Below, piece after piece: positions 18,006 through 64,000 of a stretch of 64,000 bases of DNA. How positions within the stretch are numbered: position 1 is the stretch's first letter; each line of letters opens with the position of its first letter. Position numbers and translations under genes: made by a program. The DNA comes from Candidatus Poribacteria bacterium (GTDB lineage Bacteria > Poribacteria > WGA-4E > PCPOR2b). The notes beneath the pieces are model-generated. The model did no database searches. It was given only the letters and a program-made list of their open reading frames with translations, and was not told the DNA's origin. The stretch is taken from contig OZ242036.1 of NCBI GenBank assembly GCA_965205075.1, positions 4,928,800 to 4,992,799 of the forward strand. Direction: 5' to 3'.

Positions 18006-18833
18006 ATGCAATTCAAATTAGGACGTATGTTTCTAGTTGCTCTGATGGCGCTAGTTGTGCTAGTCGGTTGTGACGTTGGCAGAGATATAATGATGGACAT
18101 GATGCCATCTACGAATACCGGGATGACTGATGCAATGGACATGGTGTCATCTACAGATACTGAAGTACCTGATATGATGGATATGATCACCGAGATGGCT
18201 GATACGGAAGCGGTTCCGGCGAAGTTGGTGTGGCTAGTCAACTATCCGGTCGGGGGAAAAGCTGACTATCTTGCATGGATTGCGGCTGTTGCACCGACAC
18301 TACTCGCGCCCGAAGAACTCAATCGGGTAGCATCTTACGATAATGCCCGCGGTGAAAGTCCGCATCGACTCGTGGAGTTTGAGTTTGATAGCTATGTGGA
18401 TGCGGCAACATATCTGAGTCGTCCCGATGTCGCTGCGGTTTTTGAGGCACTTCCAGATCAAAGCAGTGAGGTAAGTACGCATGTATTTGCCCAACGGTCT
18501 GCCGATTATTCAAAAGACGAAAATCCCAGCAGGACAGTTAAACTAGTTTACTTAGTTGATTACCCGCTTGGCGGAAAAGACGCGTATCTACAGTGGATTG
18601 CCTCCGTTGCACCGTCGCTGCAAGCACCCGAAGAGGTCAAACGGATAGCATCTTACGACAACCTTCACGGGGCATCTCCACATAGGTTCGTCGAGTTTGA
18701 GTTCGAGAGCGTCGAAGAGGCCCATACGTACCTAGAACGGGAGGAGGTACGGGCTGTTAATACCGAACTCCCGAACCAATCAAGTCGCGTAAGTCAGCTT
18801 CTGTTTGAGCAGCGTCCGGATTACAATGAATAA
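18006..18833 (+). CDS. lipoprotein with Met/Asp-rich N-terminal region and two tandem ~110-aa repeat domains
   Basis: Signal peptide plus lipobox LVGC. Segment DIMMDMMPSTNTGMTDAMDMVSSTDTEVPDMMDMITEM. Internal duplication (KLVWLVNYPVGGKADYLAWIAAVAPTLLAPEE... and KLVYLVDYPLGGKDAYLQWIASVAPSLQAPEE...). Confidence 0.6.
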   Translation: MQFKLGRMFLVALMALVVLVGCDVGRDIMMDMMPSTNTGMTDAMDMVSSTDTEVPDMMDMITEMADTEAVPAKLVWLVNYPVGGKADYLAWIAAVAPTLLAPEELNRVASYDNARGESPHRLVEFEFDSYVDAATYLSRPDVAAVFEALPDQSSEVSTHVFAQRSADYSKDENPSRTVKLVYLVDYPLGGKDAYLQWIASVAPSLQAPEEVKRIASYDNLHGASPHRFVEFEFESVEEAHTYLEREEVRAVNTELPNQSSRVSQLLFEQRPDYNE

Positions 18834-43289: not shown

Positions 43290-43372
43290 ACAAAGCCCCA
43301 GAGGGGCGATATGTGTATAGTAATGCCGAACCCCCACATGCCCAAAGCCCCAGCGGGGCGACAGGTGTATGG
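43290..43372. repeat. two tandem copies of a ~25-bp GC-hairpin repeat (AAGCCCCAGCGGGGCGACAGGTGTAT family)
   Basis: Copies lie at 43294 and 43346. Related copies occur at 49075-49100 and, degenerate, at 58722-58740. Confidence 0.6.
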
Positions 43373-44802: not shown

Positions 44803-44866
44803 CGTCTTTTGTACCACAATCTGTTAGATTGTGATCCGAACCCGCAAACTAACAGTTTGCGCTACA
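44803..44866. promoter_or_regulatory. 64-bp conserved dyad-symmetric element upstream of PhyH gene 44918
   Basis: GTCTTTTGTACCACAATCTGTTAGATTGTGATCCGAACCCGCAAACTAACAGTTTGCGCTACA is nearly identical, in inverted orientation, to 62884-62947 upstream of SDR gene 63001. It contains the CTGTTAG...CTAACAG inverted repeat. Confidence 0.5.
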
Positions 44867-48941: not shown

Positions 48942-49698
48942 GTTGGTTGTGTATCGAAAGTGTATAAGTAATTGAGGGGGGTGCATCATTATTGTCTGAA
49001 TCAGGATTTAAGGATTCTCAGGATAGAAACCGGAACGTGAAACGGGACTATTTTAGGACGGGACAGGGTGCATTTAGCCCCAGCGGGGCGACATGTGCCA
49101 TTTGTCTGAATCGCAGATTGCACGGATGATTGCACCGATTTCATCGGGAGGATTAGCATCTAAGATCGCGCATGGAGGCTAGTTCCGATGTCGTTCCGAG
49201 CATCCTGATGAATCGGGAGAAGCCTATCCCACACGAAAGTGGTTTATGCACACCCCTCAAGTAATTATAGAATTCACCATACTAAAAACTTCTTTAGGAC
49301 TAAATCCCGAACTCCAATAGATCGGGGTTAAGCAAAGCATTTTGTGGTATAATTTATTGGTCTTTCGTAGCGGATTTTAACTGCGTCTACCTGCGTAACA
49401 CCAATTTTGAAAACTGCCAAGATTGGGAACAAAAGTATTAGGGACTTTATAAAAAACTTGAAACTTTCCACCAAGTTCTTTGTGTTACCGATTGAAGCCT
49501 GTAATGCCAGCGATCAGAAAGAAAAAATGGGAAGATGAAAGTGTCTGATAAAATTCATTATCGGACATTATCGGGGTGTTTTGCGGGGGATGTGAAAATA
49601 AAGATCCAGTCATAGCAAGGGTTTTGAGAGTCTCAATAAGCCAAAAATATGTCCGATAACTGTAGCGGGCGTGATTTTGAGAGAAAGGAGAAGGGGTT

Positions 49699-58932: not shown

Positions 58933-59327
58933 TCGTTTCGATGGCAACACAAAGGTGTTGGGCATTGTTGATTTGTGCATCACCATCAGATGCTAAAGGG
59001 TGCAAAAGTTCATAGCTGGGGTGGGAGCTAGGGAGAATCCGGCGGGGCAATCAGATATGACAGCTGGCGATTTAGCCGGAGCCGAAACAGTGACCGCGTT
59101 AGCCTTCAGCTAGCCACCCTGATGCTAGCGATCTTGGGATGGAATGGTATAGGCGATCCCTTATAACGTCGGCAGTTCCTCTAAGTTGACAGTGAGGGGG
59201 AATAGGTATTACCTTGAAAGCATTTCGTCCATACCCAAAGAAGTATAAAATTGGCATGACTCGTGTGCAGCGGGTTTTCTCCGAATCGTATTCTTAGTCA
59301 TGTTTCTCGCAAGCTACGGAGGATTGG

Positions 59328-59612
59328 ATGAGCGACGAAAAAAATGACAACCCCTTGGGTTGCAGGCAAACGTGGGGGTTGATTAGTGCGGAGATGCTGA
59401 AAGCTCTCTTGGACAATCGTTTCCTGAGTGTGCCATCAGCGGTCTTTTTGTATCTCAGATTGAACGACGATGAGCATCTGAATTATAGAGAGGTTGCGGG
59501 TTGCCTCGGATTTCATGAAGCGAGTGTGTATCGAGCTGTCAAAGAACTTGCGGATGCGGGTCTCATCAAACGGAACAGACGCGGGGACTTGAGTGCTCAC
59601 ATCGTTGAATAA
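59328..59612 (+). CDS. small winged-helix DNA-binding protein
   Basis: 94 aa; C-terminal wHTH-like segment (NYREVAGCLGFHEASVYRAVKELADAGLIKRN). Confidence 0.4.
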   Translation: MSDEKNDNPLGCRQTWGLISAEMLKALLDNRFLSVPSAVFLYLRLNDDEHLNYREVAGCLGFHEASVYRAVKELADAGLIKRNRRGDLSAHIVE

Positions 59613-59654
59613 CACTTTGAATAGTGGACCTTAGAATTAATGAGACACGCCAAA

Positions 59655-59830
59655 CCGGTGCGGTTGGAAACCGCACCTACTGTTCTCCCATTTGGTAGGC
59701 GCTGTTTCTAACTGCGCCCGTTCAACCCACGCGCCTATGTGGTCCGGTTGGAAACCGCACCTACTGTTCTCCCATTTGGTAGGCGCTGTTTCTAACTGCG
59801 CCCGTTCAACCCACGCGCCTAATGCCGTAA
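59655..59830. repeat. two tandem copies of an 84-bp hairpin-rich unit
   Basis: GGTTGGAAACCGCACCTACTGTTCTCCCATTTGGTAGGCGCTGTTTCTAACTGCGCCCGTTCAACCCACGCGCCT occurs at 59662 and 59746, preceded by the 35-nt motif at 59623-59657. It generates the artefactual minus-strand ORF 59637..59849. Confidence 0.8.
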
Positions 59831-60010
59831 CCTGTGTAACTTTTCCCATTTTCGTGTTACCTTTGTTACCTTTTTTGCTAAAAAAGCCCAGAGCAGCCTA
59901 TTTTTCCTGTTTTTATCCAAGTTGCTAGATAGCCGTTGTCAAGCGAGTCGCAATTCGGAGGGGGCACCCCTACTTGGTTTATCAACTAGCAACTTGCGTT
60001 AAGATAGGTT

Positions 60011-60721
60011 TCACTCACCGAATCCTAGACTGCGGAGATGTGCCACCGCTTGCGTCATATCCCCGGGTGCCTGCATAATCCACGGTCCCTGAAAACCCAC
60101 GCCTTCAAGCACCCCCTTGACACCAGCAAAATCCACCGACCCCGCGCCGAGTGTAGGGAAATCCCATTCGTCAAAATTGCCGCTATGGTCCTTCAAATGG
60201 GTGCTCACGACATACTGTGCAATCTTTTTTAACTCCGTGACCGCATCCGCCCCATCCGTATAGAAACTGATGTTCCCCGTATCATAATTGATTCTGATGT
60301 TCGGATGGTTGGTCGCCTCCATCGTCTTCAATGCAACCTCGGCGTTATGAACGAGCGACGGGTGTGTTTCAAGCGCGACGGTGATGCCGCGTTGTGCGGC
60401 TTCATCGCCCATTGTCTTCAACCAGTCGCAGACCTTCGGTCTCATCTCCTCATCGGCTTTGATACTACTGAGTGCGAGATCTACCCCCATTGTGACCGCC
60501 GCATCAAAGGCGTTTATCCACGCTTCGCTCGCCGCCTCAGTGGCAACGGTATCCTCTTCAAGATACAACGCGGTCAACCCAATGGCTTGCAGCCCCTGCG
60601 CTTTGAGTTCTGCCTGAAGTTCCTCAACTTTGTCAGGTTCCGGGGCACCCACCTGAACATATCGGATGCCATGGTCTAAAAGCTCTGCACCGCCCCCTAT
60701 ATTCGCCAATACGTTTGCCAT
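60011..60721 (-). CDS. sugar phosphate isomerase/epimerase (xylose-isomerase-like TIM barrel)
   Basis: 236 aa; the layout of conserved acidic and His residues (ITVALETHP, HLKDH) is typical of the AP-endonuclease-2/xylose isomerase-like family. Confidence 0.75.
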   Translation of the reverse strand: MANVLANIGGGAELLDHGIRYVQVGAPEPDKVEELQAELKAQGLQAIGLTALYLEEDTVATEAASEAWINAFDAAVTMGVDLALSSIKADEEMRPKVCDWLKTMGDEAAQRGITVALETHPSLVHNAEVALKTMEATNHPNIRINYDTGNISFYTDGADAVTELKKIAQYVVSTHLKDHSGNFDEWDFPTLGAGSVDFAGVKGVLEGVGFQGPWIMQAPGDMTQAVAHLRSLGFGE

Positions 60722-60847
60722 ACCGACTCCTTTCTACGCTGATGAGCAGCGTTCCGCCATTTCCAATCCATACATTTTGTGCGTGATCATCTACTATTAG
60801 GACCTACGCTGTTGAACGGTCAAAATCTCCGTTCCGAGAGTCTATGA

Positions 60848-60935
60848 CCTGTAGTTCGGCGATTCATCGCCGTCGGATACCGTTTCCAACGCCCGATGAA
60901 TCGGGCAACTACAATATGAGATGCGTAGTCCTGTA
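60848..60935. repeat. REP-like hairpin cluster, second copy
   Basis: GTAGTTCGGCGATTCATCGCCGTCGG...CGCCCGATGAATCGGGCAACTACAAT. Confidence 0.6.
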
Positions 60936-61080
60936 CTATGTTACACGTTTGCGGGATAGATCGCAAGCCGTTTGTTGATTTGATCTGATTTTTTTACCCT
61001 TTTTTGTTCAACCGTGCTATAATGTTTGCCTGATCAACGGAGTTTGCCCTTTGTAAAATGAGTGAGGAACCCTTTGCGAC

Positions 61081-61953
61081 ATGCTTAACGATTCACAGAT
61101 TGCGACATTCAAAGAAGAAGGCTACCTGATCATCGAGGACCTTTTCACCGACGATGACCTACGCCCGGTGAAGGACGAGTTCAATGCTGTTGTCGAAGCG
61201 CAGGCGCAGCAACTCTATCAAGCCGGGCGGGTGAGCAGTTTGTACGAAAACGAGTCTTTTGAGCGGCGGTTGGCAAAGATTGCCGCCGAAGCACCTGAAG
61301 CAACTTCAGCACTACAAACCCGCGCCCATAAAGATGAGGAATTCTTTCAGTTCCTGAAACATCCCAAAATTCTTGATCGGGTTGAGTCGCTGGTGGGTCC
61401 CGATATCCTGTGCCATCCTTCCTACAATATCCATCCACGCCTACCGGGAGGGTATACCACTCCGCATCAGGATGCAGGATTTTATCTGCCCGATGGCGAT
61501 GAGACGCTGATTCTGGCGTGCTTGATACCGCTCGTCGATACCACGCTTGAGAACGGGTGCCTATGGGTCGCCCCACGTCGGCATAAAGAGGGGGTTTTAC
61601 GTCACCGCTGGGAAAAGGATGGGCTAAATATCCCTCTTGAAGAGGTCTCAGAGGCAGAGCGGCAGCCACTCCCCACAAAGATAGGCAGCATGGTGATGTT
61701 CAGCAGTATGACTCCACACGGGTCGCGGGTTAATAACACAGATACCCTCCGTTGGAGTATGGACTTGCGCTACCAAGCATTGGGGAAACCCACAGGACGT
61801 TGGTATGTCCCCGGTTTTGTCGCACGGAGTCGTTCAAACCCTGAATTGGAAACGCCCAACTGCAAGGCATGGATTGCTGAAGTTGAACGCGTCGAAGAGA
61901 AGGCAAACAAATACCCCGAATGGCCACGTTACCGTTGGCCCCAGACATCATAG
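61081..61953 (+). CDS. phytanoyl-CoA dioxygenase (PhyH) family Fe(II)/2OG oxygenase
   Basis: N-terminal QIATFKEEGYLIIEDLF, HQD iron motif (TPHQDAGFY), distal His and Arg. Confidence 0.7.
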   Translation: MLNDSQIATFKEEGYLIIEDLFTDDDLRPVKDEFNAVVEAQAQQLYQAGRVSSLYENESFERRLAKIAAEAPEATSALQTRAHKDEEFFQFLKHPKILDRVESLVGPDILCHPSYNIHPRLPGGYTTPHQDAGFYLPDGDETLILACLIPLVDTTLENGCLWVAPRRHKEGVLRHRWEKDGLNIPLEEVSEAERQPLPTKIGSMVMFSSMTPHGSRVNNTDTLRWSMDLRYQALGKPTGRWYVPGFVARSRSNPELETPNCKAWIAEVERVEEKANKYPEWPRYRWPQTS

Positions 61954-62042
61954 ATACCCCAAGCTCATTGGGTTATGTAAAAAGAAAGCGCGAAGAGAAA
62001 CCGAGTTTTTTCTTCAAAACTCGGTTTCTAAGGAATTTCTCT

Positions 62043-62855
62043 ATGGTCCGAATCCCAATTACTATGTGTCATGGCATTAGGCATGATGGCGACTATCCAT
62101 TGACCGCGGGCCATCTCGAAAGACTGGTGAAAATTGCCGCTGAACTGAATTTTGAATCCATTGATTACAATCAGCTTTTTCAATGGTTTCGAGAAGGAGA
62201 GAAGTTACCGCCTCGACCAATCATGTTCGACTTTGATCACCCCGTGAAGTCGATGCGCTATGAGATCCACGATGTCCTGAGCAAATACGGCTATGCCGGA
62301 AATCTGTTTATCAATACCGGACCGGTGGACGAACTTTACGCCAAGCCTATGCCGTCGTCCTCCCTTCGCGAGATTATGACTTGGGACGAGATAGGGCAGC
62401 TCATGGAAAGCGACTGGCATATCGGGGCACATACGGTGACACATCCGAACCTGTCTGAACTCTCCCTAGCGGATGCGTCCGGCGAAAAGTTACGTGCGGA
62501 GTTGGAGCAGTGTGACGAAACATTGAAAAAGCATCTCGGAATTACGCCACAAGATTTCGCTTTTACAGGCACAAGTTGGAGCAGCATCGCAGAGCGCGAA
62601 GTCTCAAAAAGATACCGGTTTGGCAGACTCTGGATTGTGGGGACAGAATATCAGGTTGACGGCGAGACAATGAGATACGCCGATCTCGTTGGCGTTGATG
62701 GTCCCGACGAAGCAGATGGGGGACCGCCAATGGCAGCGCGTTATATTACAAAGGCATCGCCCTCTTATCGTCTGCCGTCAATGGAAATTCAGAGACCGCT
62801 GATTTATGCCCCCGATGCGTTTCGCCGCTATCTTGAGGGCGCACTAAGGACTTAA
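62043..62855 (+). CDS. polysaccharide deacetylase (NodB-homology) family protein
   Basis: FDFDHP Asp-Asp motif region and HTVTHPNL His motif. ATG 62043 is chosen over the upstream extension of the track ORF. Confidence 0.65.
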   Translation: MVRIPITMCHGIRHDGDYPLTAGHLERLVKIAAELNFESIDYNQLFQWFREGEKLPPRPIMFDFDHPVKSMRYEIHDVLSKYGYAGNLFINTGPVDELYAKPMPSSSLREIMTWDEIGQLMESDWHIGAHTVTHPNLSELSLADASGEKLRAELEQCDETLKKHLGITPQDFAFTGTSWSSIAEREVSKRYRFGRLWIVGTEYQVDGETMRYADLVGVDGPDEADGGPPMAARYITKASPSYRLPSMEIQRPLIYAPDAFRRYLEGALRT

Positions 62856-62883
62856 CGGAATTCTTGTCCAAATTAACTATACA

Positions 62884-62947
62884 CTGTAGCGCAAACTGTT
62901 AGTTTGCGTACTCGGATCACAATCTAACAGATCGTGTTACAAAAGAC
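62884..62947. promoter_or_regulatory. second copy of the dyad-symmetric upstream element
   Basis: The reverse complement matches 44803-44866 at about 58 of 63 positions. Confidence 0.5.
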
Positions 62948-63000
62948 TATCTTTTAATGTCTGTTTGTTTTTAGAATTCACCATAGAAGGAAGTGAATAG

Positions 63001-63768
63001 ATGGCATCAATCGATTTTTCATTGACCGACAAGGTCGTTCTTGTGACCGGTGCGGGGAAAGGCATCGGTAAAGAGATTGCGCTGGCTTGTGCGAGTGCTG
63101 GAGCGAACATCGTTGCAGGGAGCCGCACCCTCAGTGAGGTTGAACAGGTAGCAGAGGACGTTCGCAAATCGGGTCAACGCGCAGAAGCGTGGCAACTAGA
63201 CGTTGCAGAGGTCGCAAGCATTGAGGAATTTGTAGGGAAAACGCTCGATGCCTTTGGTAGAATTGATGTGCTAGTTAATAACGCCGGGGTCAACAAAGTC
63301 CAGCCCGCGCTTGATGTCACCGAAGAAGATTTCGACTACATCGTGGATGTAAACTTTAAGGGCACGTTCTTCATGAGCCAGATGGTGGCGAGATCGATGA
63401 TTGAGGACGGTATTCAGGGACGCATCATCAACATCAGTTCGCAGGTTGGCGTTGTAGGCGGACCGCTTCGAGCACCCTACAGCGGTGCGAAAGGTGCCGT
63501 CTGTCTACTCACCAAATCGTTAGCCGCAGAGTGGGCACCGCACGGCATTACGGTCAACTCGGTTGCACCAACCGTCACCCGCACACCCCTTTCAGAAGGG
63601 GCACTGAAAAATCCTGAATTTCAGAAGATGGTAACCGAAAATGTTCTGATGGGGCGGATTGCGGAACCGGAAGAAGTCGCAGCGGCGGTGATCTACCTCG
63701 CAAGCGACATCGCGGGTATGGTCACCGGGCACACGCATCTTGTCGATGGCGGTTGGACTGCGGTTTGA
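63001..63768 (+). CDS. SDR-family oxidoreductase
   Basis: TGAGKGIG, NNAG and Y-x3-K (YSGAKGA). Confidence 0.85.
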   Translation: MASIDFSLTDKVVLVTGAGKGIGKEIALACASAGANIVAGSRTLSEVEQVAEDVRKSGQRAEAWQLDVAEVASIEEFVGKTLDAFGRIDVLVNNAGVNKVQPALDVTEEDFDYIVDVNFKGTFFMSQMVARSMIEDGIQGRIINISSQVGVVGGPLRAPYSGAKGAVCLLTKSLAAEWAPHGITVNSVAPTVTRTPLSEGALKNPEFQKMVTENVLMGRIAEPEEVAAAVIYLASDIAGMVTGHTHLVDGGWTAV

Positions 63769-63835
63769 CAGCATGAATCATAGTGGATCTTAGAATTAAT
63801 GAGATACGCCAAACCGAACCGCATTGCCCCCAGAC

Positions 63836-64000
63836 CCGGTAGGTGCGGTTTTCAACCGCACCGCATCGGCGCAGTTGGAAACAGTGCCTACCAGTGAGGG
63901 GAAAATCCGCGCTATGACACCGGTAGGTGCGGTTTCTAACCGCACCGCATCGGCGCGTCCCGAAAATCGGGATCCCGCCCTGTCGGGAGAAACAGCACCT
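63836..64000. repeat. CRISPR-like interspaced repeats (two copies of a 37-bp hairpin-containing repeat, 84-bp period), truncated by the window end
   Basis: CCGGTAGGTGCGGTTT(TC/CT)AACCGCACCGCATCGGCGC at 63836 and 63920 with a 47-bp intervening sequence, preceded by the 35-nt conserved motif at 63782-63816. Confidence 0.5.

Follow-up and report, generated by a model that had tools for sequence, protein, structure and literature searches.

RESULTS

Repeat copies in the window

Toward the end of the window, by which we mean the whole 64,000-nt stretch of Candidatus Poribacteria DNA that was analyzed, a gene for a 94-aa wHTH protein is directly followed by a conserved 35-nt motif (AGTGGACCTTAGAATTAATGAGACACGCCAAACCG, 59623-59657) and an array of hairpins with a period of 84 bp. 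The wHTH protein reaches no Pfam threshold, its score for TrmB being 24.9 bits against a cut-off of 25.6. A second copy of the motif, differing by two mismatches (both C-to-T), occupies 63782-63816 downstream of an SDR gene, and these two are the only matches with up to three mismatches in the 64-kb window, where 0 are expected (none in 100 shuffles). Tandem Repeats Finder resolves 59657-59821 into 2.0 copies of a period of 84, with 98% matches. An earlier note on this DNA, made from the sequence alone, had described a motif followed by an 84-bp-period hairpin array at both loci and a second motif, 33/35 identical, at about 63782; the mismatch scan, Tandem Repeats Finder, and the spacing of the repeats bear out both observations.

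The first copy of the repeat (copy 1) spans 59620-59821 on the plus strand. Its left end, a left terminal inverted repeat at 59620-59656, is assigned by similarity to other copies and to the left-end consensus. The conserved block extends 1 to 2 nt to the left of the motif as first reported: it reads TAGTGGA from 59622, where TAGTGGACCTTAGAATTAATGAGACACGCCAAACC begins, and has a sharp left boundary, with similarity to all other copies setting in abruptly at 59621. Positions 59620-59621 are AA in copy 1, at the place where complete copies carry a flanking TA.

The remainder of copy 1 consists of REP-like palindromes of two sub-families, alpha and beta. Palindrome alpha-1 (59657-59680, minus strand) comprises the hairpin GGTGCGGTTGGAAACCGCACC at 59657-59677 and a GTAG tag that appears on the plus strand as CTAC (59677-59680), and beta-1 (59695-59718, plus strand) comprises a GTAG tag at 59695-59698 and the hairpin GGCGCTGTTTCTAACTGCGCC, with the T.T mismatch typical of its family. 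Together they form an inverted dimer with tags pointing inward across a 14-nt spacer. This dimer and the trailing spacer CGTTCAACCCACGCGCCTA make up the 84-bp unit, and the whole is duplicated once (59657-59821, delimited by Tandem Repeats Finder and by comparison of copies), yielding alpha-2 (59741-59764, minus strand), which has one stem mismatch (GGTCCGG), and beta-2 (59779-59802, plus strand), recognized as a hairpin-module match. The three hairpins per unit proposed earlier therefore need amendment: the hairpins are real, but CCTAC...GTAGG represents the GTAG tags of two flanking palindromes of opposite orientation. Nor does the first hairpin have a GNRA-like loop, as had been suggested; it is GGTGCGGTT-GGA-AACCGCACC, a 9-bp stem with a 3-nt loop that varies among copies (GGA, AGA, GAA, AAA, ACA, and others).

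No right end of copy 1 was found after 59821, and 59822-59916 matches no other copy, whereas its nearest relatives (L021, L038, L033, L065, L012, L064, and others) run on into a normal right end. Copy 1 is therefore truncated on the right and, having lost that end, is unable to move: it is an immobile fossil with a recent internal duplication. It also has no coding capacity. Its single open reading frame, a minus-strand ORF at 59637-59849, is duplicated internally by the repeat and lies wholly within the element, and is thus an artefact of the repeat, as the earlier note had held.

Copy 2 opens with a left end (CA plus TAGTGGATCTTAGAATTAATGAGATACGCCAAACC; 63779-63815, plus strand) 11 nt past the SDR stop codon, and its interior (63839-64000, plus strand) holds alpha at 63839-63862 (+), beta at 63868-63891 (-), and alpha at 63923-63946 (+), followed from 63952 by a further beta (-) with CCCGAnnnnTCGGG hairpins nested in its loop. 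Here, too, the dimer is duplicated at an 84-bp period (63836-63872 versus 63920-63956, 95% identity), and 63839-63946 contains outward-tagged dimers. The window end (64000) cuts this copy; relatives in the same subfamily are complete at 167 to 217 bp and have a normal right end.

In addition, a solo sequence resembling the right end (ATGTCTGTTTGTTTTTAGAATTCACCATA, 62957-62985, plus strand; 62955-62985 with the TA that precedes it) stops 15 nt short of the start codon of the SDR gene (63001). This sequence, which is recognized by its similarity to the right end, is joined to a GTAGCGCAAAC repeat and carries a TAGAAT box.

A dispersed element family

The motif is not confined to the window. When one genome per species was scanned for a 22-mer taken from the motif, exact matches turned up in at least 116 DNA stretches from 14 Candidatus Poribacteria MAGs, with no other taxon among the matches listed, and these stretches are scattered around the chromosomes beside varied, unrelated genes and in either orientation. 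No copy was present in the viral contigs searched, and a BLAST search of the element against plasmids returned no match.

The copies share one layout, with TATAGTGGAYCTTAGAATTAATGAGACACGCCAAACC (TATAGTGGAYCTTAGAATTAATGAGACACGCC) at the left end, GGCGAAAGTGTCTATTTATTTTTAGAATTCACCATA at the right end, and a middle part that varies. The copy statistics come from fetched loci that were selected for carrying the motif and are, accordingly, biased towards the element: in these loci, a right end lies 76 to 316 nt downstream of 108 of the 158 left ends, and there are 107 distinct complete copies of 76 to 316 bp (median, 169). When reverse-complemented, the right consensus agrees with the left one at 22 of 29 positions; conservation averages 94% over the left end and 90% over the right. 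Between the ends lie from 0 to 4 or more GTAG-tagged, REP-type palindromes, and one form of the element is a 76-bp shell that contains no hairpin at all. As single-stranded DNA, this shell folds no better than its shuffles (z = +0.46), in keeping with ends that proteins bind as duplex DNA and that do not act as a stem.

Copies are mostly intergenic, only 8 element ends in the fetched loci falling inside long ORFs. Their orientation relative to the neighboring genes is near random (60:84 for the left gene and 64:48 for the right gene), which speaks for insertion and subsequent survival in intergenic DNA and not for a role tied to genes; distances from copies to start codons show no peak. Taken together, these features identify the motif as the left terminal inverted repeat of a small, noncoding, dispersed element, probably of the MITE type and specific to Candidatus Poribacteria. 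The fallback suggestion of a “novel repeat-associated element” was thus right in spirit, in that the array is part of a dispersed mobile repeat.

Insertion at TA dinucleotides

To find filled and empty versions of the same site, the flanks of each complete copy were joined and matched against the fetched DNA, such that empty sites appear as junction-spanning matches. This yielded three filled/empty pairs (L055/L086, L105/window, and L098/L043), in which TA is present once when the site is empty and on both sides when it is filled. Locus L055 reads AAACA-TA-[TAGTGG...CACCA]-TA-TATCTC, and its empty counterpart L086, from another species and with flanks that are 89% identical, reads AAACA-TA-TATCTC. 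Similarly, L105 reads CTTT-TA-[...]-TA-ATGTCT and the window, at 62871-62985, reads CTTT-TA-ATGTCT; the TA at 62955-62956, directly before the solo right end, is the empty counterpart of the site filled by a 101-bp nested element in L105. The third pair, L098 versus L043, is consistent with the same pattern of single and double TA.

More broadly, TA occurs at both outer ends in 93 of the 107 complete copies, and the flanks form a palindromic, A/T-rich context (A-W-T | element | A-W-T). The element is or was mobile, and its insertion is accompanied by duplication of TA, although, formally, the same 2-bp pattern would arise if the element carried one TA of its own and always inserted beside another.

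Internal GTAG palindromes

GTAG REPs are defined by an unpaired GTAG at one end of a G+C-rich palindrome of 6 to 13 bp (PMC3733652), and the alpha and beta hairpins have both the one-sided tag and the paired stem, along with inverted dimers that are reiterated in tandem. The tag sequence GGTA is found on exactly one side of 172 of 177 module hairpins (85 in one orientation and 87 in the other), and no hairpin has it on both sides. When oriented by tag, members of the alpha sub-family read GTAG-GTGCGGTT-TCY-AACCGCAC-C and those of the beta sub-family read GTAG-GCGCTGTT-TCY-AACTGCGC-C, with the T.T mismatch retained in the latter.

The stems show compensatory changes. Stem position 3 switches between T-A (99 cases) and C-G (77 cases), and position 4 switches between G-C (166 cases) and A-T (21 cases). 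Over the 9-bp stem, 90% of cells are paired, and there are 43 double-sided changes compared to 15.7 +/- 4.2 in shuffles, with none of 500 shuffles reaching the observed value; sliding the partner column reduces pairing to 29 to 52%. When folded as DNA, the alpha and beta palindromes form separate hairpins, and in the minimum-energy RNA fold, alpha pairs with beta to form one long hairpin; both behaviors have been described for REP dimers.

In the unbiased 64-kb window, all seven alpha/beta hairpins (matches to GGYRCNGTTNNNAACNGYRCC) sit within the two element copies, against 0.01 expected, which indicates that they belong to the element family and are not dispersed independently of it. Other palindromes also reside in the element: CCCGATAAATCGGGATC-type hairpins (84 copies in the fetched loci) are nested in beta loops, resulting in “long-loop” variants (window 63952-64000 and many loci, such as L026, L030, and L065), and G/C-rich palindromes, such as CCCCCCTTTATCCCCCCGCTAGCGGGGGGATAAAGGGGGG, occupy other element copies.

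Searches for a partner enzyme

PYSPDLNPIE-type motifs are a signature of IS630/Tc1 transposases, and none was detected in six frames of the approximately 1 Mb of fetched poribacterial DNA, which is a sample of the genomes only. Within the same DNA, pairs of left and right ends 400 to 4,000 bp apart included no autonomous copy with a transposase, inverted pairs of left ends 600 to 3,500 bp apart had no transposase between them, and no multicopy ORFs were present among the fetched loci. A transposase-like ORF in L071 was considered as a partner and rejected, as it belongs to a decayed insertion sequence with unrelated ends of its own. That insertion sequence (L071, 5660-7010), in which the transposase is split into ORFs of 285 and 132 aa between the inverted ends TTACGAAAGTTTGGACAAATTT and TTACTAAAGTTAGTACAATTTG, is inserted immediately next to a complete element copy of 171 bp.

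RAYT-like genes are abundant. A 240-aa ORF in L101 (4192-4911), found by its HUH (ANHVHVV) and YVLNNPVKAGL motifs, matches the NCBIfam model REP_Tyr_transpos with an E value of 3.9e-17 (62.5 bits, under the 80-bit cut-off), and its match to Pfam Y1_Tnp is likewise below threshold. It has 1,682 homologues at an E value of <=1e-10, of which those with a named source are poribacterial and mostly labeled “hypothetical,” with one named RayT by JGI; a tblastn search of the fetched DNA for further RAYT remnants found none. At the seven RAYT-like loci inspected (L101 and L119-L128), a small sample of the 1,682 homologues, the stems of the flanking palindromes change with the protein lineage, and alpha or beta was not among the palindromes flanking the RAYT gene at any of them.

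A GTAG palindrome of a separate kind, GTAGCGCAAACTGTTAGTTTGCG, often followed by CGGATCACAATCTAACAGATCGTGGTACAAAAGAC, occurs in the window at 62886-62908 (+) and 44843-44865 (-). It is also present on both sides of the RAYT-like gene of L101 (3946-5320), with lineage-specific stem variants in six other contexts (L119-L128), an arrangement that is REPtron-like.

DISCUSSION

A probable MITE-type element with nested REPs

We consider it probable, at roughly 0.7, that the window array is the left part of a nonautonomous MITE-type mobile element specific to Candidatus Poribacteria. In structure, two imperfect terminal inverted repeats with duplicated TA flanks form a shell around a variable number of alternating GTAG palindromes of the REP type. 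A transposase encoded elsewhere would bind both duplex ends and excise the element, which would then insert at a TA in A/T-rich intergenic DNA and duplicate it, in the manner of IS630/Tc1-mariner-type DDE transposition. The internal hairpin pairs may grow and shrink by slippage or unequal recombination, and the 84-bp x 2 array would have arisen when an inverted alpha/beta dimer was duplicated in this way. Enzymes of the IS630/Tc1-mariner type are DDE transposases whose TA target is duplicated, and the TA duplication, the inverted ends of about 30 bp, and the A/T-rich targets all point to a TA-specific DDE transposase of this class.

Two observations run counter to the MITE-type reading: the internal hairpins bear the GTAG tag characteristic of REPs, for which a different, RAYT-mediated single-strand route of movement is assumed, and neither an autonomous copy nor a matching transposase appeared in the approximately 1 Mb of poribacterial DNA or in plasmids. 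The whole composite could instead be a REPIN/BIME-type element moved via single-stranded DNA by a RAYT or “TIRYT,” with the flanking TA reflecting a target or cleavage preference and not a duplication, but we think this unlikely. The one-sided, orientation-balanced tags and the covarying stems speak for it, the inward- and outward-tagged dimers and their tandem reiteration are as reported for GTAG REPs (PMC3733652), many RAYT-like proteins are encoded in these genomes, and there is a precedent in Pseudomonas, in which long inverted repeats joined to degenerate GTAG units surround RAYT genes (PMC3733652). All seven RAYT-like loci inspected, however, are flanked by other classes of GTAG palindromes (GTAGCGCAAAC..., GTAGCATAGGC...) and never by alpha/beta or by element ends, and the shell exists in a 76-bp form without hairpins, to which single-strand folding gives no stability. 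Furthermore, the replication-strand bias expected of single-strand elements is not significant (p = 0.12 and 0.49, based on GC skew and gene-strand proxies, which are weak). To our knowledge, IS200/IS605-type transposition leaves no target duplication, and the elements concerned lack long terminal inverted repeats. It is also conceivable, if quite unlikely, that two transposition systems are partnered, with a DDE-type MITE shell hosting RAYT-type GTAG palindromes, which would insert and multiply almost exclusively within it and use it as a carrier or landing pad. The near confinement of alpha and beta to shells, the hairpin-free shell, and the abundance of RAYT genes with other REP classes are compatible with such a partnership, under which the spread of REPs in Poribacteria would depend on hitchhiking inside a cut-and-paste element.

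The remaining alternatives assign the array a function at its present location. As an RNA element, it could supply 3' untranslated region stem-loops that stabilize or process the upstream mRNA, or its ends could provide neighboring genes with promoter-like TAGAAT boxes, in the manner of Correia elements and REPs. Both window copies begin 9 to 11 nt past a codirectional stop codon, the region has a favorable RNA fold (z = -4.2), G-U pairs are present in the stems, the solo right end lies just upstream of the SDR start codon, and effects of this sort have been reported for REPs and MITEs (PMC3733652, PMC3184786). We nonetheless find such a role improbable, given the near-random orientation of copies to genes and the lack of a peak in start-codon distances, the occurrence of promoter- and terminator-like sites in 59200-64000 at the level expected from shuffles, and hairpins that have no T tails. 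Nor is there an Rfam family match: Rfam 15 gave 0 matches at gathering score in the window, and E-value mode over 59300-60100 gave a best subthreshold E value of 0.49. The idea of tandem structured sRNAs, raised in the earlier note, gains no support from the Rfam search, the promoter and terminator counts, or gene orientation. A candidate sigma-70 promoter, with TAGAAT in the motif and ATAACA 17 nt before it, was rejected because the latter hexamer lies beyond the element boundary and copy 2 does not preserve it.

The same note had also offered an iteron-like reading, in which the adjacent 94-aa wHTH protein binds direct repeats at a replication or partition origin. That a small HTH gene lies immediately upstream and that the repeats are in tandem are in its favor, but we reject it as very improbable. 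Fourteen genomes together carry the motif and hairpins at well over 100 unrelated sites, and in the window itself copy 2 lies 4 kb away, behind an unrelated SDR gene. The neighbors are chromosomal metabolic genes, and the unit that is repeated consists of two inverted palindromes and not of a direct repeat of 17 to 22 bp. Moreover, two metagenomic contigs that encode an identical wHTH protein and have 95 to 97% DNA identity depart from the window sequence at 59616-59618, 3 to 5 nt before the element, and continue without the array, one into another repeat family and the other into unrelated sequence. Because these relatives diverge at the element boundary, the adjacency of gene and repeat is coincidental, and the wHTH gene is a bystander beside which the element happened to insert, in an intergenic hot spot.

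Relationship to known repeats

Interpreted as a MITE-type element, the motif and array together are an ordinary kind of genomic repeat that joins the known MITEs with nested REPs and involves no new mechanism or class of element. The closest precedent is GTAG-15 of Anabaena variabilis. In both cases, GTAG palindromes, mostly as dimers, are located centrally in an inverted-repeat shell with termini of the form TATAG(G/T)GA...TC(C/A)CTATA, and the hairpins are seldom found outside the shell. The two differ in that the shell sequences are unrelated past the first ~9 nt, the hosts belong to different phyla, and the poribacterial element has a hairpin-free shell, up to 4 or more hairpins, and nested CCCGAnnnnTCGGG and G/C-rich palindromes. 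ISNpu3 is reportedly the proposed partner of a MITE named Nezha. The A. variabilis palindromes may correspond to Nezha (Zhou et al. 2008). In A. variabilis, GTAG-15 REP dimers lie inside long palindromes with the termini TATAGGA...TCCTATA, and no such palindromes were found without REPs (Di Nocera et al. 2013, PMC3733652).

Other families share part of the design. Like the Correia/NEMIS elements of Neisseria and ERIC (about 100 to 160 bp), the poribacterial element is short, noncoding, and intergenic, has TA-flanked terminal inverted repeats, and exists in many copies; no partner transposase is known for those families, and none was found for this one in the approximately 1 Mb of poribacterial DNA or in plasmids. 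Inverted ends and TA flanks are documented for both Correia and ERIC (PMC3184786). The sequences are unrelated, however, and Correia elements come as fixed-length variants and not as a variable array of GTAG palindromes. In addition, the promoter, IHF-site, and RNase III functions of Correia were shown by experiment. As in BOX of Streptococcus pneumoniae, a conserved 5' module and a conserved 3' module bracket variable tandem internal modules, but the BOX-B modules are direct repeats without GTAG tags, and both hosts and sequences are unrelated. With the REP/BIME/REPIN sequences of E. coli and Pseudomonas, the internal palindromes share the GTAG tag, a 9-bp G+C-rich stem, compensatory sub-families, a conserved stem mismatch, alternating orientation, and tandemly reiterated dimers; classical REPs, in contrast, have neither terminal inverted repeats of ~30 bp nor TA duplication, and none of the seven RAYT-like genes inspected was flanked by alpha/beta.

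No paper in the literature searched links Poribacteria with MITEs or REPs. For these uncultivated sponge symbionts, recognition of the family removes spurious ORFs, such as that at 59637-59849, from Candidatus Poribacteria annotation. The family may help to explain intergenic variation from strain to strain, and perhaps assembly breaks, and its filled and empty sites could serve as strain-typing markers. It also adds another case of GTAG palindromes within a terminal-inverted-repeat shell, noted once before in a cyanobacterium, and so bears on the origin and spread of REPs.

Other repeats in the window

Several further repeats were encountered in the course of the analysis. A second repeat family is represented at 60798-60933, where the inverted ends TAGGACCTACGC...GCGTAGTCCT surround CGGCGATTCATCGCCG and CCCGATGAATCGGG hairpins; about 28 copies of its ends are present in the fetched loci, and in contig L117 it follows the wHTH gene in place of the motif element. 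At 59917-60002, there is an inverted pair, CCAAGTTGCTAG ... ACTAGCAACTTGCGTTAA, whose 18-mer occurs 31 times in the fetched loci, often as the right edge of a conserved block of ~70 bp (GGAAAATCGACCTACAAAAATGATACAATTTGCACAGGGATTAGGGG...) and often followed by a TATAAT-like sequence; this pair may represent a promoter motif or the end of a further repeat. More distantly, a 158-nt direct repeat with 72% identity and a spacing of 318 nt (family D1; 18235-18392 and 18553-18710) probably lies within a coding region, and a 28-nt repeat containing the palindrome GCCCCAGAGGGGC occurs three times (family D3; 43291-43318, 43343-43370, and 49073-49100).
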